Origin: an uncultured Candidatus Marinamargulisbacteria bacterium
Lineage (GTDB): Bacteria; Margulisbacteria; Marinamargulisbacteria; GCA-2716485; CAXFGY01
Length of the DNA: 11,977 nt
NCBI GenBank assembly: GCA_964002605.1
Contig: CAXFGY010000030.1
Coordinates: 1 to 11,977 of the forward strand
Direction of reading: 5' to 3'
The position numbers were made by a program, and so were the translations under genes. Numbering within the stretch: position 1 is the stretch's first letter; each line of letters begins with the position of its first letter. A model generated the notes under the pieces. That model saw only the letters and a list, made by a program, of their open reading frames with translations. It was not told where the DNA came from and made no database searches. Below, one piece after another: positions 122 to 11,977 of the stretch.

Positions 122-1867
122 TTATTTCAAACTTTTATCATTTTTTTGTTTTTCAAACAAATAATTAAGTTTTTTTTGTTGCGCTTGCAATTGTCTTGTT
201 CTCATATTCAATACTTTATTGGTTTTTAACAATTCTTTCTGTAACTCTTTGAGAGACTGACTAATCACTCTCTTGGGATACAAATCATAATATAAATAAT
301 CCACCTTCTCTTGCTGCGTTTTAACTAATTCTTTTTCATTAAAAATGATATCTTGTTTTTCTTTTAATTGAGCCTGATAATTATTAATATTGTTTTTTTC
401 TTTTTTGATTGCAATCACAATCTTTTCACGTTTTACTTTTGAATCATTAATTTTCTTTCTAATTTCAATTTTATTTTTAACTGATAAAACGGACCTATTC
501 GATTCGTATTGCTTTTTGTTAGCGAGTAATTGCTTCTGCTCTTCGTTTTTTAACTGATATTTTTTTTCATAAGTCCTAATACTATTTTGCGACCGTTGCA
601 ATAATTTCTTTAATTTAGTTATTTGCCGCTGACCTTTTATTTGGCGCCTTAACAACCTATTTAACTCTTTTTTTTCAACTTTTAATAACATTTTCAACTT
701 TTTCCTATCTGCCTTCAATTGACTATCTCGAATACTTTTTTGACCTTCACTTATCAGCTTTAACTGTATTAATTTACTTTTGGTTCTACTGAATAACGCT
801 GATATCGTTTGCTGATATGCGTCTATTTTTTTGATTTTTTTCTTATACCCATTTATTGCTGCTTCTGTTGACTTTATTTTTTTTGAAATACCCAATTGAC
901 TTTGCTTATATCTTGTTTTTCTTTGATTAAATAAACTTAAGGAAATATAGTGCATCTTGTCGTAATAAATTACTCCTGTCTGCTCATAGGCATAACTCAA
1001 CTTAATCCCTTTAACTTTTAAATTTAATCCTACTGATTTTCGCATTACTGTTTCATCTAAATGCAACATGGTACGCAAACCAAACAATCCTTCAATATAA
1101 GGGAAATGTTGATGTTTTATCGCAATTCCAGCTGCATAAAATAAGGGATATTTTTCGTACTGAGTTAACTGAAAATGAATTGATGATTCTATATTTTTGT
1201 AATTGCTTTTTTTAGAGCTATTAATAAACAGTTTAAATGGCAAGTCCTCCCCTGACCGACCATCAGAATATCTCATATTTAATCCTGGAAATATGTTATG
1301 AACTCCAACTCCTAACTGATATCCAGACTTAATAAAATATACCCCAAAGTCACTATTGATTCCTTGTCCAACAATATTATATATTTCTGAATGCAGTATT
1401 TTTATTGATGCGCCTAAACTAATATTTTGCAGAAGTGCCATGCTTCCCGCCACATAATACTTACTATTATAATATGAATAAGGGGCTGCTGAACTCAAAA
1501 TAATATTATTAACTGCTGAATTATTATTGTTTATTGTTGTTTGTTGAATTCCTTTGATACCTAACGCTGCATAACCCAGTCCGATTACAAAGTTTTTGTA
1601 CGATTGGGATACACTAAGGTTTTGGACTGATACATCCTGAATGGTTGTTGTATAAAAGGTATCAATAGACCACTTAACTTGATGGTCTAATTGTGCTGGA
1701 TTTACAAATACAGCCTGTGCGGTTTTTAAATTTGAATTAATTCCACCCAATGCAATTGACTCAGCAGATACCCCTAAATCTGTTATATCAAGTATGTTTT
1801 CAGCTTTTGACTGAATTGCTAAAATACTGACTATGATAAATATACAAATACAATCACTAAACTTCAT
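122..1867 (-). CDS. Outer-membrane beta-barrel protein (copy A) with a FadL/PorV/PorP-like N-terminal plug motif. It is a paralog of the 7849..8814 gene. It also carries a ~265-aa Lys/Gln/Glu-rich predicted coiled-coil C-terminal extension.
   Basis: The N-terminus is a signal peptide (MKFSDCICIFIIVSILAIQSKA). The motif DITDLGVSAESIALGG...NPAQL aligns with the FadL-family hatch pattern S-x4-A-x2-G-x4-A-x2-A-x5-NP and is shared nearly verbatim with the 7849..8814 protein. The two proteins are collinear for ~315 aa. Strands alternate and the barrel ends ...HYISLSLF, a terminal aromatic as in OM barrels. After that comes K/Q/E-rich low-complexity sequence. An RBS GAGGA sits 4 nt upstream of the ATG at 1865-1867. 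The gene begins 24 nt downstream of the 1892..3382 gene. Confidence 0.6.
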   Translation of the reverse strand: MKFSDCICIFIIVSILAIQSKAENILDITDLGVSAESIALGGINSNLKTAQAVFVNPAQLDHQVKWSIDTFYTTTIQDVSVQNLSVSQSYKNFVIGLGYAALGIKGIQQTTINNNNSAVNNIILSSAAPYSYYNSKYYVAGSMALLQNISLGASIKILHSEIYNIVGQGINSDFGVYFIKSGYQLGVGVHNIFPGLNMRYSDGRSGEDLPFKLFINSSKKSNYKNIESSIHFQLTQYEKYPLFYAAGIAIKHQHFPYIEGLFGLRTMLHLDETVMRKSVGLNLKVKGIKLSYAYEQTGVIYYDKMHYISLSLFNQRKTRYKQSQLGISKKIKSTEAAINGYKKKIKKIDAYQQTISALFSRTKSKLIQLKLISEGQKSIRDSQLKADRKKLKMLLKVEKKELNRLLRRQIKGQRQITKLKKLLQRSQNSIRTYEKKYQLKNEEQKQLLANKKQYESNRSVLSVKNKIEIRKKINDSKVKREKIVIAIKKEKNNINNYQAQLKEKQDIIFNEKELVKTQQEKVDYLYYDLYPKRVISQSLKELQKELLKTNKVLNMRTRQLQAQQKKLNYLFEKQKNDKSLK

Positions 1868-1891
1868 ACCATCCTCTTCATTGACCTAACG

Positions 1892-3382
1892 TTACTTTTT
1901 ACGCGGTATTACTCCTAATTTTGTTTTATGAACGACTTCTCCAGCTAACACCAATAAAATACTATATCCACCAACAGCCATATGATGAAACTCATCACTC
2001 AAAACTGTTATTTCACTATACCAATAGGTACTATCCTGATAATTTACTAAATTACCTTTTTGAAATGCTTCTTTCTTAACATGTAACTGCCCTAACATAT
2101 CAAATATATACACGATAAACCTTGCATCATCATTAATTTGATTGCCATAATATAGACCCAGCCGCAAGTCCTCTCCTTGTTCAATTGGGCTTGGATAAGC
2201 ATAAAAATGGTCAACCCCAGTATTATGAACTTCTGTAGTATCCAGTCCTTTATTTTCTTCAAAAATATGTCCTTGTGAATATAGCTGACTCAGATTCCAA
2301 CTACAATTTAATGCTGTTTCTGGTAACGTAACATGATCAAATTTGCCAATAATTTCTGTAAATTCAAATAACTGATAACTTCGGTTGCAAACTGATTCAG
2401 ATTCATTTAAGGGATCTGATTGAGACATTAGTATTGCTTGATTTATACTCGCATTTACAAGTGTCCCCTTTTTTTCTTCTTCATTTTCAATCATTAACTT
2501 GCCCCCATGGATCTGTAACCGATACCCAGAAACCAGGCTATTTAGCGGCATTTTTAATTGTGCCTCAGCAGCAACAATCAACTGCCCTTCCCCTTCTATT
2601 TTTACATTGATATTTGCAACTGATTTTAATATTCCTTTCTCTATTTCTAAACTTTTATTCACTATTGGTGTTTCAACAAATAATTGGCCTGCCTGCAATG
2701 TTATTTTGTTTGCTGTTTCCTTAATTTTAGTTTCTTGATTTAAAACGTTATCCCTTAATAATATTTGAATTGCACTATAATTATTAATGACTAACTCTTT
2801 TGCTTTTTGCTTTTCATGTTCATTATCAAACATACTTTTATCTACCCATTCTAATAGTATATTTGGAATATTTTCATTATCTGTTAAAAAATCACCCCAA
2901 TTAACTTTATCTGTAATTTTTAATTTATCTAATAAATCAATAATTTCTTTTCGAGACGCTTTAGTTATTTCACTTGGCAAATCATAATATTGGATAGGCG
3001 TCTGAAATGTCCCGGATGGCATTATTAATTTCCCTTCATTATCTACAATACTTACGGCACCTTGTGCTGAAGAAATTGTAGTCGTTTTTCCATTAAATAG
3101 TTCTATGGACTTTGTGATCTCCCCCTTTTTTTTAATCTCAATATTTCTTTGTTGAACCGCTTCTTTAATCGTCTGTTGAACAGGTTTTGTTAATGGATCT
3201 ATTTCATCAATAAGATAACGATCATTCCTATATTTAATTGGATCAAGTAAGTCAGTATTCGTCACAACTGCTTTACCAGTCAATTCAACACTATACAAAA
3301 ACCCATCAATAGTTCCTAAAAAATTAGACCCCATTAATAACGATACTATTAAACATCTTAAAACACGATAACTAATTATCAT
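1892..3382 (-). CDS. Secreted protein (cargo copy A, 496 aa). Its C-terminal ~430 aa are homologous to the C-terminal module of the large 8841..11977 protein. It lacks the repeat array. The last ~100 aa resemble a T9SS-type C-terminal sorting (CTD) Ig-like domain.
   Basis: The N-terminal signal peptide is MIISYRVLRCLIVSLLMGSNFLG. Collinear similarity to the large protein runs through MPSGTFQTPIQYYDLPSEI~MPKTKGEIISVYDFPETI, then CNRSYQLFEFTEIIGKFDHVTLPE~CSQSYTLFEFSTINGNFDEVKLPE, then CSWNLSQLYSQG~CSWNLSELYTQG. The CTD-like tail is YPSP...FIVYIFDMLGQLHVK...FHHMAVGGYSILL...GEVV...KLGVIP. Confidence 0.6.
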   Translation of the reverse strand: MIISYRVLRCLIVSLLMGSNFLGTIDGFLYSVELTGKAVVTNTDLLDPIKYRNDRYLIDEIDPLTKPVQQTIKEAVQQRNIEIKKKGEITKSIELFNGKTTTISSAQGAVSIVDNEGKLIMPSGTFQTPIQYYDLPSEITKASRKEIIDLLDKLKITDKVNWGDFLTDNENIPNILLEWVDKSMFDNEHEKQKAKELVINNYSAIQILLRDNVLNQETKIKETANKITLQAGQLFVETPIVNKSLEIEKGILKSVANINVKIEGEGQLIVAAEAQLKMPLNSLVSGYRLQIHGGKLMIENEEEKKGTLVNASINQAILMSQSDPLNESESVCNRSYQLFEFTEIIGKFDHVTLPETALNCSWNLSQLYSQGHIFEENKGLDTTEVHNTGVDHFYAYPSPIEQGEDLRLGLYYGNQINDDARFIVYIFDMLGQLHVKKEAFQKGNLVNYQDSTYWYSEITVLSDEFHHMAVGGYSILLVLAGEVVHKTKLGVIPRKK

Positions 3383-3514
3383 TACACTATAAGATAATCC
3401 TATTTACTTAAGGCTTGCATAAAAAATATTGCATAAACTATTAATGATCAAACATACACTCTTCTGTAGGAAAAGCGTAAAAACAATTAATATGATAACT
3501 GAATTTAATAAACG

Positions 3515-4548
<1,034 letters not shown>

Positions 4549-4628
4549 AAACATAATATCTAATTAAACCCATTTGTTTCTTATTTAATACCACTATCTA
4601 TTATTATACGGTAATACCACTAAAGATC

Positions 4629-4991
4629 CTATAGGTTAGCACGCTTTAATACCAATTCAGCTAATGATGAATCTACTCCCAATGGGGCTGTTACTTCTCC
4701 TGTTAACCCTTTATGTAATTTTAAAGCCTCTCTAACCATGTGTGGAATATCTTCTTTGGCATGTCTACCTGGAGACAACATATACGGATGAGCAATTATA
4801 TGAGTTGCTCCCCTGTCAACACAATCCTGAATACCCTCTTCAATGCTGGGACTTGCAAGTTCCATATGTGCCCCAACAATAATTAAATCAGGACGCTTTT
4901 GACGTAATAATTCAACCACATCATTTAACATAATATTTGCACTATTACGCTTAGAACCATGATCAATAACTAATAATGCTTTTCTTGTCAT
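4629..4991 (-). CDS. cbiX: Small CbiX-type sirohydrochlorin chelatase (cobalto- or ferrochelatase, CbiX(S)/SirB-like).
   Basis: A 120-aa product with the CbiX signature LLVIDHGSKR near the N-terminus and ...IIAHPYMLSPGRHAKEDIP..., which matches the (V/I)PLFL..G.H...DIP motif of class II chelatases. An RBS AAGGTG lies 6 nt upstream. Confidence 0.72.
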   Translation of the reverse strand: MTRKALLVIDHGSKRNSANIMLNDVVELLRQKRPDLIIVGAHMELASPSIEEGIQDCVDRGATHIIAHPYMLSPGRHAKEDIPHMVREALKLHKGLTGEVTAPLGVDSSLAELVLKRANL

Positions 4992-5007
4992 TTATACACC
5001 TTTTTTA

Positions 5008-5037
5008 TTGCATTTTTTTAAATTCTTATTATATAAT
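5008..5037 (+). promoter_or_regulatory. Candidate sigma70-type promoter (TTGCAT-18-TATAAT) for the MarC-family gene. It implies a leaderless or near-leaderless transcript.
   Basis: TTGCAT lies at 5008-5013 and TATAAT at 5032-5037 with an 18-nt spacer. The ATG codons at 5042 and 5048 are only 5-11 nt downstream. The AT-rich background makes chance matches likely. Confidence 0.3.
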
Positions 5038-5041
5038 AAAA

Positions 5042-5665
5042 ATGATAATGAGTATATTGCCAAATCAATTTTTTGATATTCTAATATTATTATTGGTTAT
5101 GTTTAATCCTTTTTTAATGAGTATTTACCTCATTGAACTTATTCAGTCACTTTCTTCAAAACGGTTCTCATATGTTATTTTTCGTGCATTTTGGATTAGT
5201 TCTTTAATTTTTATCGGATTTGCGTTTAGTGGAGATTACTTATTTCAATCGGTGCTTCAAATCCACTTTGGCTCTTTTATGATATTTGGGGGTATTCTAT
5301 TTACGTTGATATCACTTCAACAGATGATATCGGGTCCAAAATCAATTAATCTTTTAAGAGGCCCTATTGAACATATTGGTGGCGCAGCCACACTACCATT
5401 TATGCTTGGCCCAGGTACAATTAGCACCAGTATTTATGCAGGATCCGTGCTATCGCCAACTTGGACAATCATTGTCATTGTATCCGCCTCGCTGCTATCT
5501 GCTTTCAGCTTAATTATGTTAAAAGTTTTATTCAGTAGAGTTGCAATTAAAAAACATGACTTTATGGAAAGTTATATTAATATTATTGGTCGAATGATGG
5601 CCTTAATTATGGGCTCTATTGCTGTGAATATGATTATTAAAGGCATTCAATTAATTATAACTTAA
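5042..5665 (+). CDS. MarC family (UPF0056) integral membrane protein. The start is probably ATG 5042 or ATG 5048, not the longer ORF start at 4976, which overlaps cbiX.
   Basis: It is collinear with E. coli MarC. MSILPNQFFDILILLLVMFNP matches [21 protein letters not shown], with NP at the same position 20-21. PFMLGPGTISTSIY matches PLAMPSTAGPGTIAMI. IGRMMALIMGSIAVNMIIKGIQLII matches [25 protein letters not shown]. The product is a ~207-aa protein with multiple TM segments. Confidence 0.7.
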   Translation: MIMSILPNQFFDILILLLVMFNPFLMSIYLIELIQSLSSKRFSYVIFRAFWISSLIFIGFAFSGDYLFQSVLQIHFGSFMIFGGILFTLISLQQMISGPKSINLLRGPIEHIGGAATLPFMLGPGTISTSIYAGSVLSPTWTIIVIVSASLLSAFSLIMLKVLFSRVAIKKHDFMESYINIIGRMMALIMGSIAVNMIIKGIQLIIT

Positions 5666-5687
5666 CTTATTAAATCTTTCGAATATT

Positions 5688-6854
5688 ATGCTTAATCGAA
5701 TACCACTTCAAGAATTAAAAAAACCCCGCTTGCTTAGTGTGGTACCGAACACAAATACAGCTAATCAACTTTATCGCTCCTGGCCTACAAATTTAGACAG
5801 TACAAGGCCTTATGCGACACAGCCGCCACCCCTACTAGACACTTCAAAATTTTGTAAAAAAATGCAGAAATTTTTAACTATAATGGAGATTAACCCAAGT
5901 ACGCTTAAATTAAGCGACCCCTATACTAAAAATAATATCGAAATGATTAAAAATATTTTACAGCAACCGCCTTGTCATATCCCTTCTAATGAAATATCTA
6001 TTGCGACCCACCCTGGACCTCATAAAACGGATAATGAGGATTGTATTTCTGTCATACACCCCCCTGACATACCGGAAATAAAAGCTATTATTTGTACTGA
6101 CGGTGTCAGCATAGGACTTCCCAGAACGCCATTTGAAAGAAATGAAAATGGAATTGCTGCTTCTAACTATATTAATAATCAACTGGGTATATGGATTAAT
6201 TCAGATGCATTCAAAACCATATTTTACGAATTAATAAATCAAGACAAATCAAAATACGATCGTATTTCAAAGTTTTTTGAAGATGTAACGAACGCAGTCC
6301 AAAAAATTGCTAAGAATATTTATCCTAAAAATAGTTCCACTACTCTTGAACTGACGTTTTTAGTTCAATATGAAAATCAAAATTATGTATTTGCATTTTC
6401 TTGGGGAGACTCTAGTACTTTTATTTATAAAAATAAAATTACTGTACCACTAAATGTGTATTATTATAACAATGTTACACAGTTAAACACTGGATATAAT
6501 ATTTTCTTTGAAAAAAACTTTTTAAATGCCTCCATAAAGTCATCCGACCCAGAAGACCCCGGTGCAGTGATCAATGCTCATGATGCATACCGACAAAAAC
6601 CATCTTTAACTATTATGCCAATAAATGACGGAGATACCGTTATCATTGCAACTGATGGATATATCGATAATTTAAGTAAAACCTGCCCAAATGATCCATC
6701 AAAAATACTATTTCAAACCGATTTAGCTGGTAAACTTATTACATTATGTGATGAACTTAATATTAAAGATAGAGCGTCCTTGATTGCATCTGTTTGCGGG
6801 GTAATTAGAGAAAAACCAGATGATATTACAGTGGCAGTAGTACCACCGCAGTAG
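5688..6854 (+). CDS. Divergent PP2C/PPM-family Ser/Thr protein phosphatase-like protein with a Pro-rich N-terminal region. The exact start is uncertain.
   Basis: Five PPM motifs occur in the right order. Motif 1 is GPHKTDNEDCISV (R..NED). Motif 2 is ICTDGVSIG (DG.GG-like). Motif 5 is FAFSWGDSSTFIY (GDSR-like). Motif 8 is IIATDGYIDNL (SDGL.D-like). Motif 11 is DDITVAVV at the C-terminus (DNITVIVV-like). No obvious SD lies upstream of 5688. The next in-frame Met is residue 59. Confidence 0.55.
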   Translation: MLNRIPLQELKKPRLLSVVPNTNTANQLYRSWPTNLDSTRPYATQPPPLLDTSKFCKKMQKFLTIMEINPSTLKLSDPYTKNNIEMIKNILQQPPCHIPSNEISIATHPGPHKTDNEDCISVIHPPDIPEIKAIICTDGVSIGLPRTPFERNENGIAASNYINNQLGIWINSDAFKTIFYELINQDKSKYDRISKFFEDVTNAVQKIAKNIYPKNSSTTLELTFLVQYENQNYVFAFSWGDSSTFIYKNKITVPLNVYYYNNVTQLNTGYNIFFEKNFLNASIKSSDPEDPGAVINAHDAYRQKPSLTIMPINDGDTVIIATDGYIDNLSKTCPNDPSKILFQTDLAGKLITLCDELNIKDRASLIASVCGVIREKPDDITVAVVPPQ

Positions 6855-6860
6855 TACCAC
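6833..6860. repeat. Exact 14-nt tandem duplication (gcagtagtaccacc x2) spanning the stop codon of the PP2C-like gene.
   Basis: The sequence ggcagtagtaccaccgcagtagtaccacctaaaa was read directly. The second copy shifts the frame by 2 nt and supplies the TAG stop, giving ...AVVPPQ*. Without it the frame would read ...AVVPPKKTLCTLTI*. Confidence 0.85.
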
Positions 6861-6943
6861 CTAAAAAAACATTGTGTACATTAACTATATAATATACTAT
6901 TTTGAAAGAAATATTTTAAACTTATTTTTAAAGGGAGATTTTT

Positions 6944-7834
6944 ATGGCTCAAACTGTTAATTTTAATTCTGATATGTTCAATAAACTTTCTAAATATATT
7001 CCTATACTATTTATTATTATTCTTTTACTCCCTGCTTCATTTGTTATTATTGATGCAGGCAAAGTAGGCGTTGTTAAACGACTGGGTGCTGTTCAACCGC
7101 TTTCTTTACCTGAAGGCTTTCACCTTAAAATCCCTTTTGCCGATCAGATTATTAAAGTTGATGTTAGACTAATGAATAGTCGCTCTAATGCGCTCTCTTC
7201 TTCCAAAGATTTACAAACTGTTCGTACAACAGTTGAAGTTCAATACTCTATCAATGGGACAATGGCACCTTACACCTATCAAAAAGTGGGTCTTAACCGC
7301 CAAATTCAAGCCCGTGTTATTGAACCTGCCATTGGCGAATCTGTCAAAGCCGTTACTGCCCAATATACTGCTGAAGAACTCATTACAAAGCGTGGCACTG
7401 TCAAACTCCAAATTCAAGGGGCTATTCAAAACTATATTAATGCAACATTAGAAAAGAAAAAGATTAAAGAAGGCATTGAAATTGCTAATGTTGCGATTAC
7501 TGACTTTAATTTCTCTGATGAGTTTAATCGTGCAATTGAAATGAAAGTAAAAGCGGAACAAGAAGCACTACAAGCTAAAAATGAAAAATTAAAACGAATT
7601 ACTCAAGCTGAAGCGGCTGCCTCTGAAAAACAATTGGCTGCTGATGCTTCTGCCTATGAAATTTCTGTCGGATCTAAAGCGCGAGCTGATGCAATTAAAC
7701 GTGAAGCAATGGCATTACGCAACAACCCGGAATTAATCCAACTACGAATCGCTGAAAAGTGGGACGGTAAACTCCCTCACTTTAACGGTAGCGATGCTGT
7801 GCCTTTATTGAATATTAATCCCAAACAAAATTAA
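6944..7834 (+). CDS. SPFH/band-7 domain protein of the prohibitin/HflC-like family, with an N-terminal membrane anchor.
   Basis: A TM segment (YIPILFIIILLLPASFVIIDA) is followed by the SPFH core GKVGVVKRLGAV...LKIPFADQIIKVDVR...LQTVRTTVEVQY. The C-terminal part is an Ala/Glu/Lys-rich coiled coil (KAEQEALQAKNEKLKRITQAEAAASEKQLAADASAYE) typical of prohibitins. A strong RBS AAGGGAG at 6931-6937 lies 6 nt before the ATG. Confidence 0.85.
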   Translation: MAQTVNFNSDMFNKLSKYIPILFIIILLLPASFVIIDAGKVGVVKRLGAVQPLSLPEGFHLKIPFADQIIKVDVRLMNSRSNALSSSKDLQTVRTTVEVQYSINGTMAPYTYQKVGLNRQIQARVIEPAIGESVKAVTAQYTAEELITKRGTVKLQIQGAIQNYINATLEKKKIKEGIEIANVAITDFNFSDEFNRAIEMKVKAEQEALQAKNEKLKRITQAEAAASEKQLAADASAYEISVGSKARADAIKREAMALRNNPELIQLRIAEKWDGKLPHFNGSDAVPLLNINPKQN

Positions 7835-7848
7835 TCATTTATTTTATT

Positions 7849-8814
7849 CTAGTGATGAACACTTCTTTTTTTACTAAATAAACTTAAAGAAAAATAATGC
7901 ATCTGGTTATACATATGCGCATTGCTACTCTCAAACGCATAGCTAAATTTAATTCCTCTAACCGTTAAATTGAGCCCTACTGATTTACGCATTATTGTAT
8001 CATCTAAATGTAATACACTACGTGTACCCAGTAACCCTTCAATATAAGGAAACCCCTGATACAATATCGTTGCTCCGCCTGCATACAACAATGGACTTGC
8101 CTTTGATTTATTAAGCTGTAGATGAAACTTTGACTCTATTCTTTTAAACACTACTTTTTTAGTCCCATTAATAAAAAGCTTTAATGGCAGCTCTTCATCC
8201 ACATAACTGGTCCCACTTGCATCACTGTAATTCATTTTGAACATTGGAAAAATATTATGGATACTAACTGCCAATTGATAACTAGGTTTAATATATTGTA
8301 AGCCAAAATCACTATTAAACCCTTTACCCGATATCGTCTCTAATGTTGTGCTGAACCATTTCATTGATCCGCCTACAACAATATGATCCAACACTTTATA
8401 ACTTGTTCCAAAATATAGCGTATCATAACTATATGAATATGAATCAGGGGATCTAACTACTTTTTTACCTGTTAAACCATCTTCTTGACTTGTTTTTGGG
8501 ATGTCATTCATTCCTGTTCGTGTCCAACCTAAACCAAAAGAATATAATTTATAAGCCTTCGATAGGCTGATATTTTGAATATTTACATCCTCAATCGTAT
8601 TCGTATGAAATGCATCTGCTGACCAATTCAGCGTATTATCCAGGAATGATGGATTGATAAAAATTGCATGAGCTGTTTTTGCACTTGAATGTGATCCACC
8701 AAGAGCAATAGACTCTGCCGACACACCAAGGTCAGTCACATCAAACGCAACTTCTGCATATAATGATATTGTCATTATCATTATTCCGCTAATTATTTTT
8801 ATTAAAAATCTCAT
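7849..8814 (-). CDS. Outer-membrane beta-barrel protein (copy B, 321 aa), paralog of the 122..1867 barrel without the Lys-rich tail. The plug motif is FadL/PorV/PorP-like.
   Basis: The signal peptide is MRFLIKIISGIMIMTISLYA. The motif DVTDLGVSAESIALGG...NPSFL is shared with copy A. Similarity is collinear over the full length, for example KLFINGTKK~KLFINSSKK, RKSVGLNLTVRGIKFSYA~RKSVGLNLKVKGIKLSYA and MHYFSLSLF~MHYISLSLF. An RBS AAGGGGG (plus 8821-8827) lies 6 nt upstream of the ATG. The gene begins 26 nt downstream of the large cargo gene. Confidence 0.6.
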   Translation of the reverse strand: MRFLIKIISGIMIMTISLYAEVAFDVTDLGVSAESIALGGSHSSAKTAHAIFINPSFLDNTLNWSADAFHTNTIEDVNIQNISLSKAYKLYSFGLGWTRTGMNDIPKTSQEDGLTGKKVVRSPDSYSYSYDTLYFGTSYKVLDHIVVGGSMKWFSTTLETISGKGFNSDFGLQYIKPSYQLAVSIHNIFPMFKMNYSDASGTSYVDEELPLKLFINGTKKVVFKRIESKFHLQLNKSKASPLLYAGGATILYQGFPYIEGLLGTRSVLHLDDTIMRKSVGLNLTVRGIKFSYAFESSNAHMYNQMHYFSLSLFSKKRSVHH

Positions 8815-8820
8815 TTTTTA

Positions 8821-8827
8821 CCCCCTT
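8821..8827 (-). promoter_or_regulatory. Shine-Dalgarno AAGGGGG for barrel copy B. The position suggests translational coupling or co-transcription with the upstream cargo gene.
   Basis: The reverse complement of plus ccccctt lies 6 nt before the ATG at 8812-8814. The gap to the upstream stop is only 26 nt. Confidence 0.65.
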
Positions 8828-8840
8828 GGTTGACCAACAA

Positions 8841-11800
8841 TTAGTTTTTAGTAGTTGGCTTTACTCCTAATTTTATTCTTCTAATCACTTCACCATCTTT
8901 TTCTATAATTACACTATAAGCTCCCACTGACATATGATGAAATTTAGTTGAATCAATTTTTATTTCATGATAGTAGTAACGTTCTTGTGTATTATCGATA
9001 TTAAATTCTGTTCGGTTAATCATTCCTCCATTTAATTCTTGGATATCTTTAACATGTAATCTACCCAATATATCAAATATATATATTGTAATTTCATGTG
9101 AGCTATCTTTTAAATCTGATCCAAAATAAATTGCGACAGTTAGTTCCTCTCCTTGAGGTAAAGGACTAGGATGAAGAAGGATTTCTTGAATTCCCCCGCC
9201 AGCAATATTACTAGCAACTTGAACATCATTGCTTTCTTGATAAATAATTCCTTGTGTATATAATTCACTTAGATTCCAACTACACCCTTCTTCTGCTTCA
9301 GGTAGTTTGACTTCATCAAAATTACCATTAATAGTTGAGAATTCAAATAATGTATAACTTTGACTACATTCTGTTTGACTAGAATGACCTGAATCTAATA
9401 TAGACATCATAATCGATGCATTTATATCTGAACTTTTAGATAGTGTACCACCTGTTGTTGTTGATGACTCATTACTATCAATTAATAATATCCCTCCATC
9501 AATCGCTAAGGTATTTCCTTTAAGCGTATTATTCAATGATAATTTAAGTTTAGAACCTGGTCCTATTTTTAATAAAGCGCCTACTTTTATTTCATTTTTA
9601 GCGGAGGACATCTTTAATGTTCCTCCATCTAAGCTAACACTTTTACTGCTTGATGATAATTCTAAGCTCCCTTGCTTTAAAGCAACCTGATCACTCGTTT
9701 CAGATACTTTTGTTGTTCTACTAATTACTTTTCCAGTTAATACTTCTATAATATCTTCATAATAATTAGACATTAAGTTAATCGCTTGATCTTTTTCTGT
9801 TTTTGTAAATGTTTTATTGTCTAATATTAACGCTGTTAAAGTATCATTATTTGGAATTGCATCAATATCATTAATGATTGAAGATAAATAACCGTCTTTA
9901 GTTAATTGGACTTTCTCTAACATATTGATAATTCCTAATCTTGTACTATTATTTTTAGTGTCTATTGTTTCTGGGAAATCATAAACACTTATTATTTCTC
10001 CTTTGGTTTTAGGCATACTCACTAATTCACTCGTTTCTGGATCCATTCCCAATGTACCTTCAATTGTTTTTGATGTTGTCAGCACACCGTTTATAGTCTG
10101 TACTTCTGTTGTTATTCCATCACTGATCTGAATTGTTTTTCTTTCAATAACAACGCCATTTGAATCTTGTTTTTCTGATGATGTTATCTCTGTAGTCGGA
10201 TCCCAAGTATTAATTGTTGTTGTGACTATATTTTTATTATTATCTTTTTCTAATATAGTAACACTATTTCCTGCCGTAATTTCTTCTGTAATATTGATAG
10301 TAACGCCATTACTATCTTGTAACACTGTTTCTATGCTATTTCCAAGCGTTGTTTCTATCTCAATTCTAGTGATTTCATGAGTCATTGTCTTATTAACTTT
10401 TGTTGCAACCACTGTCCCATCGCTATGCTTTTCTGTCGTTACTTCTTGAATATTTAATGTAATTCCATTTGGTAATTTTTGAACTTTTGTTAATTTATTT
10501 CCAGAAACTATTTCAACTTCTATTCCCATGATATTTTCGTTACTTTTAACACCATTGTATATGGTTCGTGTCAACTTATTATTTGTTGATATTAATTCTA
10601 CTGTCGTTTTTAGAATAGTATCTTTGGTTTCTCCATACTCAACTTTTGTAGTCAAATTATTACTCACTACTGTTTCAATCCTACCAACCACTTTTCCTTT
10701 TTGGTTGATTTGTACTGATATTTCCTTTGACTGACTTGAATCAACTATATTTCCAATTTTTGATATTTGGGTTTGCTTTAATATTGCACTTATTCCAGGT
10801 TTACCCACATATATTGTTGTTAATATCTGACCGCCTATTTTTTCAACAACAATACTTTGGATAATATTTGTATCACTAATTTCCCCGCTATAAAATATAG
10901 TGGTTACTTTATTACCCTCTGTTACTTTAATCTCACTACTTAACACATTCCCATTAACATCTTTTTCTATTGTTGTAATCGTATTATCTATTTCTATTTC
11001 CTCTACTATACTCAGTATATCCCCCAGTGGGCTTTGTTTTACTGTTGTTATACTATTTCCAGATACCGTCACTTCAGTAATTCCTGTCATATTACTCATA
11101 TTAGTATCGCCATTATAATCTACTGTTATTTCAATATTTCCAGAAGTCGTTATTGATTGACTATTGATTATATTATCTAAACTGATACTGCCGTTATAAT
11201 ATTTAGTTATTATTGTATTACCTGATGTTATGACTTCTGTACTCCCTATAATAAAACTAGTGTTCACTGCTCCTGCATAATTAATAGTTTGAATACGATC
11301 CGATAATGTAATGACTTTAGTACTACTACTCAATTGCCCTAAATTGTCTTTTAATGTCGTTATTGTGATATTATCTGAAGTTAAAACTTCAATAACCTCT
11401 ATAAGATTACCTGTTCCATCTGGACCATCAAACCTCATTGTAGTTACTAAATTACCGGATGTAATTATTTCTTTACTTCCAATAATATTACCCTCGCTAT
11501 TTTGTACGTTTTCAATTTGACTATTTCCTGATGATATAACTTGTCTTACTCCACTTAAATTATCTGGACTCACTACACCTGTATAAACTGATACAGTTGT
11601 TGTATTTCCTGATGTCACTGTTTCTGTACTTTGTAATACTGAAACTGGGTTTCCATTACTATCTACCTCATATGTTGAATTAATCACTATTCCGTCTGGT
11701 TCAGTAGTGACAGAATCTATACTCACAACTTCTCCATTTTGATCAATTTGAGTTGTCGTTACTTGATTTCCATCACTGGATGTCGTTGCCACTGTGGTTC

Positions 11801-11977
11801 CCGTTGCGGTTGCACCAGTTGTATTTGGTAATCCTGTACTTGCATCCGTAGTCACTGAACCATCATAACTTGTTGTGGTCACGGTTCCGCCATCACTGGA
11901 TGTCGTTGCCACTGTGGTTCCCGTTGCGGTTGCACCAGTTGTATTTGGTAATCCTGTACTTGCATCCGTAGTCACTG
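8841..11977 (-). CDS. Large secreted or surface repeat protein (cargo copy B, more than 1044 aa). It is 5'-truncated by the window edge. From the N-terminus it has Thr-rich 40-aa tandem repeats, then ~20 copies of a ~28-aa TSGN beta-type repeat, then a conserved ~430-aa C-terminal module ending in a T9SS-CTD-like domain.
   Basis: The ORF is open to the window end; the track's initial M is only a GTG in an open frame. The repeat consensus is approximately (E/Q)VITSGNxITTxxYxGxxSxxNIIxS, recurring from about residue 100 to residue 650. The C-terminal module is homologous to the 496-aa protein. The CTD-like end is HPSPLPQGEEL...ITIYIFDILGRLHVK...FHHMSVGAYSVII...GEVIRRIKLGVKP. Confidence 0.6.
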   Translation of the reverse strand, partial: VTTDASTGLPNTTGATATGTTVATTSSDGGTVTTTSYDGSVTTDASTGLPNTTGATATGTTVATTSSDGNQVTTTQIDQNGEVVSIDSVTTEPDGIVINSTYEVDSNGNPVSVLQSTETVTSGNTTTVSVYTGVVSPDNLSGVRQVISSGNSQIENVQNSEGNIIGSKEIITSGNLVTTMRFDGPDGTGNLIEVIEVLTSDNITITTLKDNLGQLSSSTKVITLSDRIQTINYAGAVNTSFIIGSTEVITSGNTIITKYYNGSISLDNIINSQSITTSGNIEITVDYNGDTNMSNMTGITEVTVSGNSITTVKQSPLGDILSIVEEIEIDNTITTIEKDVNGNVLSSEIKVTEGNKVTTIFYSGEISDTNIIQSIVVEKIGGQILTTIYVGKPGISAILKQTQISKIGNIVDSSQSKEISVQINQKGKVVGRIETVVSNNLTTKVEYGETKDTILKTTVELISTNNKLTRTIYNGVKSNENIMGIEVEIVSGNKLTKVQKLPNGITLNIQEVTTEKHSDGTVVATKVNKTMTHEITRIEIETTLGNSIETVLQDSNGVTINITEEITAGNSVTILEKDNNKNIVTTTINTWDPTTEITSSEKQDSNGVVIERKTIQISDGITTEVQTINGVLTTSKTIEGTLGMDPETSELVSMPKTKGEIISVYDFPETIDTKNNSTRLGIINMLEKVQLTKDGYLSSIINDIDAIPNNDTLTALILDNKTFTKTEKDQAINLMSNYYEDIIEVLTGKVISRTTKVSETSDQVALKQGSLELSSSSKSVSLDGGTLKMSSAKNEIKVGALLKIGPGSKLKLSLNNTLKGNTLAIDGGILLIDSNESSTTTGGTLSKSSDINASIMMSILDSGHSSQTECSQSYTLFEFSTINGNFDEVKLPEAEEGCSWNLSELYTQGIIYQESNDVQVASNIAGGGIQEILLHPSPLPQGEELTVAIYFGSDLKDSSHEITIYIFDILGRLHVKDIQELNGGMINRTEFNIDNTQERYYYHEIKIDSTKFHHMSVGAYSVIIEKDGEVIRRIKLGVKPTTKN
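11770..11977. repeat. Perfect 120-nt (40-aa) tandem direct repeat inside the large cargo gene. It very likely continues beyond the window edge.
   Basis: 88 nt at 11770-11857 are identical to 11890-11977, which is the end of the window. The period is 120 nt. The encoded unit is TTDASTGLPNTTGATATGTTVATTSSDG plus ~12 variable residues. Confidence 0.9.

Follow-up and report, generated by a model that had tools for sequence, protein, structure and literature searches.

Paired genes for putative surface cargo proteins and PorV/PorQ-like outer-membrane barrels in a marine metagenomic contig

Two cargo-barrel gene pairs in one window

The stretch of DNA analysed here (11,977 nucleotides, G+C ~31%; hereafter the window) holds nine credible genes, among them two gene pairs of the same order that lie at both sides of a block running from ilvC to a Band 7 gene. 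In each pair the gene of a cargo protein with a conserved C-terminal module is followed directly by that of an outer-membrane barrel resembling the PorV/PorQ family from the T9SS (type IX secretion system), and the tail domain that ends each cargo resembles the type A C-terminal domain (CTD) of the same system. All four open reading frames (ORFs) are on the minus strand, and the features of the two pairs are as follows.

1892..3382, minus strand: cargo 1 gene, 496 residues (ORF list); plausible Sec signal, short unique N-terminal region, then the conserved module
1895..3157, minus strand: conserved C-terminal module of cargo 1, ~420 residues (76-496), from BLASTP and a three-sequence alignment
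1895..2230, minus strand: tail domain of cargo 1, ~110 residues, putative beta-sandwich, resembling a T9SS type A CTD
122..1867, minus strand: barrel 1 ORF, 581 residues, a ~318-residue barrel plus a 262-residue tail
914..1867, minus strand: barrel 1 proper, residues 1 to ~318, signal peptide and PorV/PorQ-like 14-strand barrel
122..913, minus strand: C-terminal extension of barrel 1, 262 residues, 21% Lys, coiled-coil-like (coordinates take in the stop codon)
8841..11977, minus strand: cargo 2 gene, more than 1044 residues, its 5' end open at the window edge
8844..9206, minus strand: tail domain of cargo 2, ~120 residues, type A CTD-like (TIGR04183 E 0.063; alignments; 146.7 bits to a local CTD model)
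7849..8814, minus strand: barrel 2, 321 residues, signal peptide and PorV/PorQ-like 14-strand barrel with no C-terminal extension

The two pairs are paralogous. Barrels 1 and 2 are 47% identical over 322 residues (E 1e-100) and the cargos 34% identical over 442 residues (E 3e-66; residues 76-496 of cargo 1 against 610-1043 of cargo 2, BLASTP), and as sequence matches both similarities are far above chance. Common to the barrels are a D(I/V)TDLGVSAESIALGG motif near the N-terminus and the terminal strand MHY(I/F)SLSLF; in barrel 1 these ends read as a conserved N-terminal DITDLGVSAESIALGG...NPA motif and a last strand MHYISLSLF. From cargo stop codon to barrel ATG there are 24 nucleotides in pair 1 and 26 in pair 2, with purine-rich ribosome-binding sites (GAGGA, AAGGGGG) placed 7-8 nucleotides before both barrel ATGs. 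By inspection cargo 1 and both barrels carry plausible Sec signal peptides; that of cargo 2 cannot be checked because the N-terminus lies outside the window. The preliminary description of this DNA had read it as two paralogous cassettes around intervening genes, with a 24-26 nucleotide spacing and a ribosome-binding site for each barrel, and we find the same, gene coordinates included. Its estimate of ~315 residues for the barrels suits barrel 2 but not the 581-residue ORF of barrel 1, and of the signal peptides it gave to both cargos that of cargo 1 stands, the start of cargo 2 being out of sight.

The barrels are distant relatives of the PorV/PorQ family

Comparison with NCBIfam profile hidden Markov models (HMMs) matches barrel 2 to PorV_fam (NF033709; E 4.8e-13, 49.4 bits) and to PorQ (E 7.9e-9, 35 bits) and barrel 1 to PorQ only (E 9.4e-10, 38 bits), while close barrel relatives give PorV/PorQ matches up to E 2.5e-19, at 51-70 bits. 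A word-indexed search returned three barrel relatives only, and the family emerged from an exhaustive HMM search of 1.84 billion representatives, in which it comprises 1681 clusters (50% identity) at E ≤0.001 and 398 at E ≤1e-10. PorV_fam is matched by 64 of 69 sampled members and PorQ by 59, with weak matches of three to PorP/SprF (TIGR03519); a weak PorP match is also found in the relative P0003. The predicted structure is a FadL-type outer-membrane barrel of 14 strands, for which PorV is the best structural match, and nothing precedes the barrel besides the signal peptide and the conserved motif, so far as N-terminal domains are concerned. Judged by these profile scores (E 5e-13 to 2.5e-19), the relationship of the barrels to the T9SS PorV/PorQ family is distant but significant.

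Other comparisons returned little. The barrel profile has no match among PDB sequences, and the clade was not found in 185,579 GTDB species genomes, where the sole match is a bona fide PorV in a metagenome-assembled genome (MAG) of Neomarinimicrobiota. In Pfam and NCBIfam the window barrels have no PorP/SprF match and give no Omp85, POTRA, ShlB or DUF560 signal. The earlier statements that the barrels are not TpsB proteins and show no recognisable SprF signature are upheld, Pfam giving neither a FadL nor a PorP_SprF match, and the FadL-like hatch ascribed to them holds at the level of the fold; the view that they bear no recognisable T9SS signature was wrong, since the NCBIfam PorV and PorQ models match.

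The cargo tails resemble type A C-terminal domains

The conserved module of the cargos begins with a linker and a beta-rich stalk-like segment. After these come a motif (C..SY.LFEF..I.G.FD.V.LPE...C.WNLS.LY.QG) whose two cysteines are invariant and then a tail domain of ~105 residues, in which the motifs YPSP, IYIFDxLGxLHVK, FHHMxVGxYS and KxKLGV recur. Residues 396-447 of cargo 1 match the type A model TIGR04183 (Por_Secre_tail) at E 0.0014 and 18.5 bits, and the tail of cargo 2 reaches 13.3 bits (E 0.063). Across the family, TIGR04183 is matched by five of eight tails (best E 1.3e-5), the tail at locus L028 scoring 20.9 bits, and PF18962 by three of the eight (best E 0.001). The type B model TIGR04131, by comparison, has no match to the tails at E up to 1, and CHU_C is faint in one of eight (E 0.12). 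Near the tail end a Lys-x-Lys is conserved (K102 and K104 of the eight-tail alignment), which may be the counterpart of the PorV-contacting lysine conserved in type A CTDs. These lines of evidence are weak but agree in direction, and make it quite probable that the cargo tails are homologous to the T9SS type A CTD.

Searches by structure and by distant profile add little to this assignment. Foldseek comparison of the tail model with the PDB returned generic immunoglobulin-like (Ig) and Fn3 domains only; against PDB sequences the profile of the cargo module found only phage p2 ORF16, at chance level (E 0.012), and that of the tail alone gave two matches (E 0.4 and 0.59). A word-indexed search with cargo 1 returned itself and no cargo relative, and Pfam and NCBIfam recognise no domain, of two-partner secretion (TPS) or any other kind, in its N-terminal part.

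The two cargos differ in what stands before the module. Cargo 1 is little beyond the module itself; in cargo 2 it is preceded by degenerate repeats of ~30 residues rich in Thr, Ser, Gly and Asn, with no tandem repeats at the DNA level. Big_9, Cadherin_4/5 and He_PIG repeats are present in cargos of relatives. At L013 (L013:1-9933; JGI 3300046168, a 48.5-kb contig), a locus adjacent to a Band 7 gene, the cargo was called as one gene of 11,135 residues, of which the 3310 examined hold eight Big_9, eight Cadherin_4 and further He_PIG domains. As called, the L013 cargo gene is among the giant bacterial adhesin genes, and since the cargos of relatives bear adhesin-type repeats, one of them at this length, cargo 2 is probably a giant adhesin as well.

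Cargo and barrel genes stay paired and diverge together

The six-frame ORFs of all reachable clade loci were scanned with local HMMs for barrel, tail and module. Wherever a clade barrel has DNA upstream of it, the ORF directly before it ends in the tail, so that no locus with upstream sequence supplied what the preliminary description had named as evidence against itself, a barrel lacking an adjacent tail gene. Ten pairs are non-redundant (the two of the window and those of L005, L010, L012, L013, L015, L017, L019 and L022); L018, almost the same as L019, and L020, which shares 95% identity with L013, are paired too but were counted as redundant. In all, 15 related barrel loci with DNA upstream, besides the two of the window, show this pairing. 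In 10 of 11 measured pairs, window included, the barrel start lies -4 to 121 nucleotides from the cargo stop, the exception being L012 with 267 nucleotides and an uncertain barrel start. Distant members are paired likewise in all four cases (P0014/L015, P0030/L027, P0100/L028 and L007), the tail of P0100/L028 opening with a canonical-looking NYPNPF, and pairing persists across barrel identities from 95% to ~27%.

Among the distant loci, L007:4687-10966 (Neomarinimicrobiota MAG JAQULT010000034.1) is a three-gene set, in which a 1044-residue TonB-dependent-receptor-like protein comes first, then a 700-residue protein with a tail weakly like the PorZ CTD, and third a bona fide PorV/PorQ-family barrel (170 bits). 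As read from its genes, this is a further arrangement of a CTD protein followed by a PorV-like barrel outside Bacteroidota.

Within the ten non-redundant pairs the pairwise identities of barrels and of tails are correlated (Pearson 0.78, Mantel p 5e-5), and nearest neighbours largely agree for the two proteins, window pair 1 going with L017, window pair 2 with L005, and L010 with L012. This shows the cassettes to duplicate and diverge as units, and both the strict pairing and the co-divergence claimed earlier from the window are supported by the wider sample. L010, which shares its Tara samples of origin with the window and whose cargo has thrombospondin-type-3-like, Asp-rich repeats beside a barrel of 740 residues, is probably a third cassette of the window's organism, which would then hold at least two, and probably three, private pairs.

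The cassettes may also have moved relative to their neighbours, as the Band 7 gene suggests. A barrel converging on this gene is found in L013, L017 and L020 too, where it bears a coiled-coil tail (the L017 barrel is 58% identical to window barrel 1 and 51% to barrel 2); unlike these, the barrel beside Band 7 in the window is the tail-less barrel 2, which suggests rearrangement or exchange between paralogous cassettes.

Barrel extensions: coiled coil, SLH and Ig-like domains

The 262-residue tail of barrel 1 contains a single Pro beside its 21% Lys and has a hydrophobic periodicity of 3.4 and 7.55 residues, a composition and spacing that give it the look of a coiled coil; a family scan of the tail gave only low-level SMC-like matches. 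The fused 581-residue ORF recurs in separately assembled copies of the contig, one with a single-residue difference, and the fusion is therefore no assembly artefact. Roughly half of the barrels in the clade are extended at the C-terminus. In window barrel 1 and the barrels of L017 and L013 the extension is coiled-coil-like and 261-316 residues long, and the L010 tail is comparable. P0009 (740 residues) combines a coiled coil with an Ig-like terminal domain, by inspection only and with no Pfam match, and P0003, P0007 and P0013 have Ig-like domains alone, for which Pfam support is weak or absent. P0011 (L012:2981-5404) is a fusion of a PorQ-like barrel with an SLH domain (41 bits, cut-off 20.8) and a Glucodextran_B-like Ig domain (43 bits, cut-off 27).

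L005, whose barrel is the closest relative of barrel 2, has a short barrel followed 20 nucleotides downstream by a gene for a 1003-residue coiled-coil protein rich in Lys, Gln and Glu (L005:1646-4657). Because the coiled coil is here encoded by a gene of its own, it can be regarded as a recurrent third component of the cassettes, fused or separate, and the difference between L005 and window barrel 1 with its relatives is one of gene fusion or fission. SPOR-like ends of the coiled-coil proteins, and of a TPR protein encoded downstream, were considered and dropped, as Pfam did not support them.

An even-stranded barrel has both ends facing the periplasm, so the C-terminal tails of these predicted barrels should be periplasmic, and an SLH domain in that compartment implies attachment to the cell wall. 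Probably the tails link the anchor to the cell wall or to machinery in the periplasm. Outer-membrane barrels tethered by SLH domains are typical of diderm Terrabacteria and not of the Fibrobacterota-Chlorobiota-Bacteroidota (FCB) group, which carries T9SS, and the SLH fusion of P0011 may therefore be a clue to lineage. In the literature searched we found no description of tether domains on PorQ-like barrels paired with proteins that have type A-like tails; a parallel is the PorP-PorE (OmpA_C) link of P. gingivalis (PMC9143113).

Surroundings of the cassettes

Five genes, recognised by Pfam and NCBIfam scans, lie between the pairs and outside the system.

3515..4540, minus strand: ilvC
4629..4991, minus strand: CbiX-type chelatase (cbiX)
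4976..5665, plus strand: MarC family (marC)
5688..6854, plus strand: PP2C-like, weak
6944..7834, plus strand: SPFH/Band 7

The PP2C-like protein of 388 residues has weak matches (PF13672 E 0.0019, Stp1 E 0.013), and other assemblies of the window contig have a gene of the same length at its position. In the ORF list marC runs 16 nucleotides into the start of cbiX, which is divergent to it (4976..4991); gene callers begin marC later, giving 205 residues. An 87-residue ORF inside the Band 7 gene in another frame (7188..7451) is probably spurious. Between the ilvC stop codon and the start of cargo 1 there is a terminator-like hairpin with a 10-bp stem (3455..3479, minus strand), which fits a transcription unit of cargo 1 and barrel 1 on their own, within promoter and terminator scans of the window that were at chance level overall. 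The window contains no Rfam or tRNA features, and the flanks of ilvC relatives show no synteny.

Beyond window position 1 the contig continues (L003:12144-14083) with two same-strand genes directly downstream of barrel 1. The first encodes a TPR protein of 431 residues, the second a protein of 480 residues with a signal peptide, a periplasmic segment, a transmembrane helix and then precomputed FliG_M/FliG_C matches; for a FliG-like domain such an architecture is unusual. Both genes may be part of the same surface or motility cluster, or a sign of a flagellated organism. The window contig has copies in marine metagenome assemblies only (Tara Oceans ERR599014, JGI 3300020457 and NCBI MDTG01).

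A proposed private carrier and anchor for each cargo

The reading we favour, and consider rather likely, is that each barrel is the private carrier and anchor of its own cargo, acting together with a translocon of the T9SS type whose genes would lie elsewhere in the genome. The cargo would pass the inner membrane via Sec, after which the extracellular loops of its own barrel would capture the C-terminal module, as PorV does with type A CTDs at the SprA/Sov translocon. The barrel-cargo complex would then exit the translocon and the cargo would remain on the surface with its tail bound non-covalently, as in PorU-PorV, PorZ-PorQ and SprB-SprF, and where the barrel has a periplasmic tail this would tether the anchor. 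The tail-bearing gene directly upstream at every locus examined and the co-divergence of barrel and tail speak indirectly for binding of the tail by its barrel. For a barrel predicted to be of the 14-strand FadL type, carrying or anchoring a cargo is much more likely than exporting it. The earlier proposal that the barrel exports or anchors its cognate cargo thus survives as the idea of a dedicated partner, with anchor and carrier favoured over export.

Several results weigh against this reading. Genes of the T9SS core (SprA/Sov, PorK/L/M/N, PorU) are found neither in the contigs available from this organism (about 12-19 kb), the window included, nor in the other flanks examined. All 11 barrels with individually read scores (35-70 bits to PorV_fam or PorQ) fall under the curated NCBIfam cut-offs, which are 90 bits for PorV_fam NF033709, 220 for PorQ NF033711 and 250 for PorV NF033710; with significant E-values and scores below cut-off, the barrels are distant superfamily relatives and not curated PorV or PorQ members, and standard pipelines would label the family 'hypothetical'. 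Pfam gives no family for the window barrels at E up to 1, FadL/OMPP1/Toluene_X (PF03349) and PorP_SprF (PF11751) included, and no match for the two window tails, which at 13-18.5 bits are also under the 23-bit cut-off of TIGR04183. The tail model is of low confidence (overall predicted local distance difference test score, pLDDT, of 51, with 60-80 in the tail part), and generic Ig domains score against it as well as T9SS CTDs or better. Finally, correlated divergence of barrel and tail is also expected from co-inheritance of adjacent genes, and is no proof alone of physical co-adaptation.

A more far-reaching version of the carrier-and-anchor reading, which we put forward tentatively and think improbable on present evidence, is that the cassettes constitute a third class of CTD sorting. 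Here a type A-like tail together with a pre-tail module of ~300 residues would be recognised only by a private PorQ-like barrel that brings along a tether in the periplasm (a coiled coil, an SLH or an Ig-like domain), mounting giant adhesins in a marine lineage, possibly without PorU/PorZ processing or even a canonical T9SS. If this were true, tail-in-barrel anchoring of the PorV/PorQ kind would be older and more widespread than the T9SS of Bacteroidota.

The alternative that survives best, though we judge it unlikely, dispenses with T9SS altogether: the tail would be held in the barrel as proposed, the cargo would cross the outer membrane by another route, and the coiled-coil, SLH or Ig-like tails would replace the wall link that PorE and the PorK/N ring provide in Bacteroidota. 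The missing core genes speak for it, as do the sub-cut-off scores throughout the family, the absence of the clade from GTDB species representatives (the only genome match being the bona fide Neomarinimicrobiota PorV), an SLH domain on an outer-membrane barrel that is unusual for the T9SS-bearing FCB group, and a conserved cargo module which, at ~420 residues, is far longer than a type A CTD. However, some 10-20 kb of flank tells little about a whole genome, T9SS parts are the closest known relatives of both the barrel and the tail, no alternative translocon is known for a Sec substrate of 11,135 residues, and barrels of the 14-strand FadL type are not known as protein channels.

That last point bears equally on the possibility of the barrel itself translocating the protein encoded upstream, in the manner of two-partner secretion (TpsB) or of type XI secretion (Slam), which we consider very improbable. 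Strict adjacency of cargo and barrel, the barrel's own ribosome-binding site and its short distance to the cargo stop would all be expected of such a system, but the barrels give none of the Omp85, POTRA, ShlB or DUF560 signals named above and the N-terminal part of cargo 1 has no recognisable TPS or other domain. In FadL-type barrels, moreover, the lumen is occupied by the N-terminal hatch, and FadL-fold barrels are not known to conduct polypeptides. As specific candidates, TpsA/TpsB was rejected for want of a 16-strand Omp85-type barrel with POTRA domains and of a TPS domain in cargo 1, and type XI secretion, whose DUF560 barrel has a TPR region at its N-terminus, because there is no DUF560 match in Pfam and no N-terminal domain on the barrel; a BamG reading was also considered and rejected.

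Ordinary FadL-type transporters of hydrophobic substrates that stand beside cargo genes by coincidence can be dismissed as hardly credible: the N-terminal G.SA...GG...NPA-type motif is common to the FadL superfamily, but no Pfam FadL/OMPP1/Toluene_X model matches at E up to 1 where PorV/PorQ models do, a tail-bearing gene is directly upstream in all loci examined at barrel identities from 95% to ~27%, barrel and tail divergence are correlated, and the Pfam and NCBIfam scans show nothing of lipid or aromatic catabolism among the genes nearby.

Significance and comparison with known systems

If each barrel is indeed the private carrier and anchor of its cargo, the consequences reach beyond this window. 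With 1681 clusters at 50% identity, the family to which the barrels belong is a large one that lacks annotation (the members scored individually are all under the NCBI naming cut-off), and in marine metagenomes a giant 'hypothetical' adhesin followed by a 'hypothetical' outer-membrane protein of 300 residues becomes readable as a cargo-anchor pair. For the T9SS and gliding field, the fused coiled-coil, SLH and Ig-like tails offer a handle on how surface-anchor barrels couple to the cell wall or to periplasmic machinery.

T9SS has so far been pictured with a shared PorV carrier for type A tails and private PorP/SprF carriers for type B tails, and the cassettes suggest a third arrangement, in which private PorV/PorQ-like carriers serve type A-like tails. 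PorV is of the same superfamily and fold as the window barrels, and its extracellular loops, which bind the beta-sandwich CTD, wrap the type A CTD within the SprA pore as PorV carries the cargo out (PMC10994853). It is, however, shared by all type A cargo of a cell, whereas here each cargo has its own co-diverging barrel. From FadL and TodX channels the barrels described here are set apart by the want of a sequence-family match and of a catabolic gene context, and by the strict linkage to tail-bearing proteins.

Barrels dedicated to holding a CTD are already known in PorU-PorV, in PorZ-PorQ and in the type B CTD proteins with PorP/SprF (PMC12365241, PMC9143113, PMC12618676). PorV anchors PorU and PorQ anchors PorZ, both of which keep their CTDs (PMC12365241). 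The likeness to the cassettes lies in a CTD surface protein set on a 14-strand barrel of the PorV/PorQ family, since the window barrels match the HMMs of that family and the tail is type A-like. In many Bacteroidota porU and porV are adjacent. The differences are that the window barrels score well under the family cut-offs, that an organism here has at least two and probably three private pairs and not one of each, and that some of the barrels have long periplasmic tails. The cargos, too, are adhesin-like and not processing enzymes, and are dissimilar to PorU and PorZ outside the tail, where the only matches are that of the L007 tail to PorZ and a weak one to PorU in one of eight aligned tails (E 0.02).

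In gene layout the closest counterparts are the type B systems SprB-SprF and PG1035-PorP, in which a gene for a large repetitive surface protein has its own barrel gene directly downstream. Type B CTD cargo is encoded directly ahead of its cognate PorP/SprF barrel (PMC12618676) and stays attached to that barrel on the surface (PMC9143113), and several paralogous, specific pairs of this kind can occur in one genome (PMC12618676, PMC9143113). The cassettes share with them the paralogous pairs within a genome and, as proposed here, the holding of the cargo by its own barrel, a conserved region that exceeds the minimal CTD and, with the 11,135-residue protein of L013, a giant adhesin cargo like SprB. 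Unlike PorP/SprF, however, the window barrels have no match to that family, to which only 3 of 69 members of the wider family are weakly related (TIGR03519), against 64 of 69 for PorV_fam; and unlike type B CTDs the tails have no TIGR04131 match, the consistent matches being those to type A.

The preliminary description had proposed an undescribed arrangement outside known systems, and with barrels related to PorV/PorQ, PorV as their best structural match and tails resembling the type A CTD this no longer holds; a system so recognisably related to T9SS is not categorically new. What the cassettes do is to set a tail of type A-like kind and a barrel resembling PorV/PorQ in the gene layout, and with the private specificity, of type B cargo and PorP/SprF, a combination that is new, built on a principle that is known.

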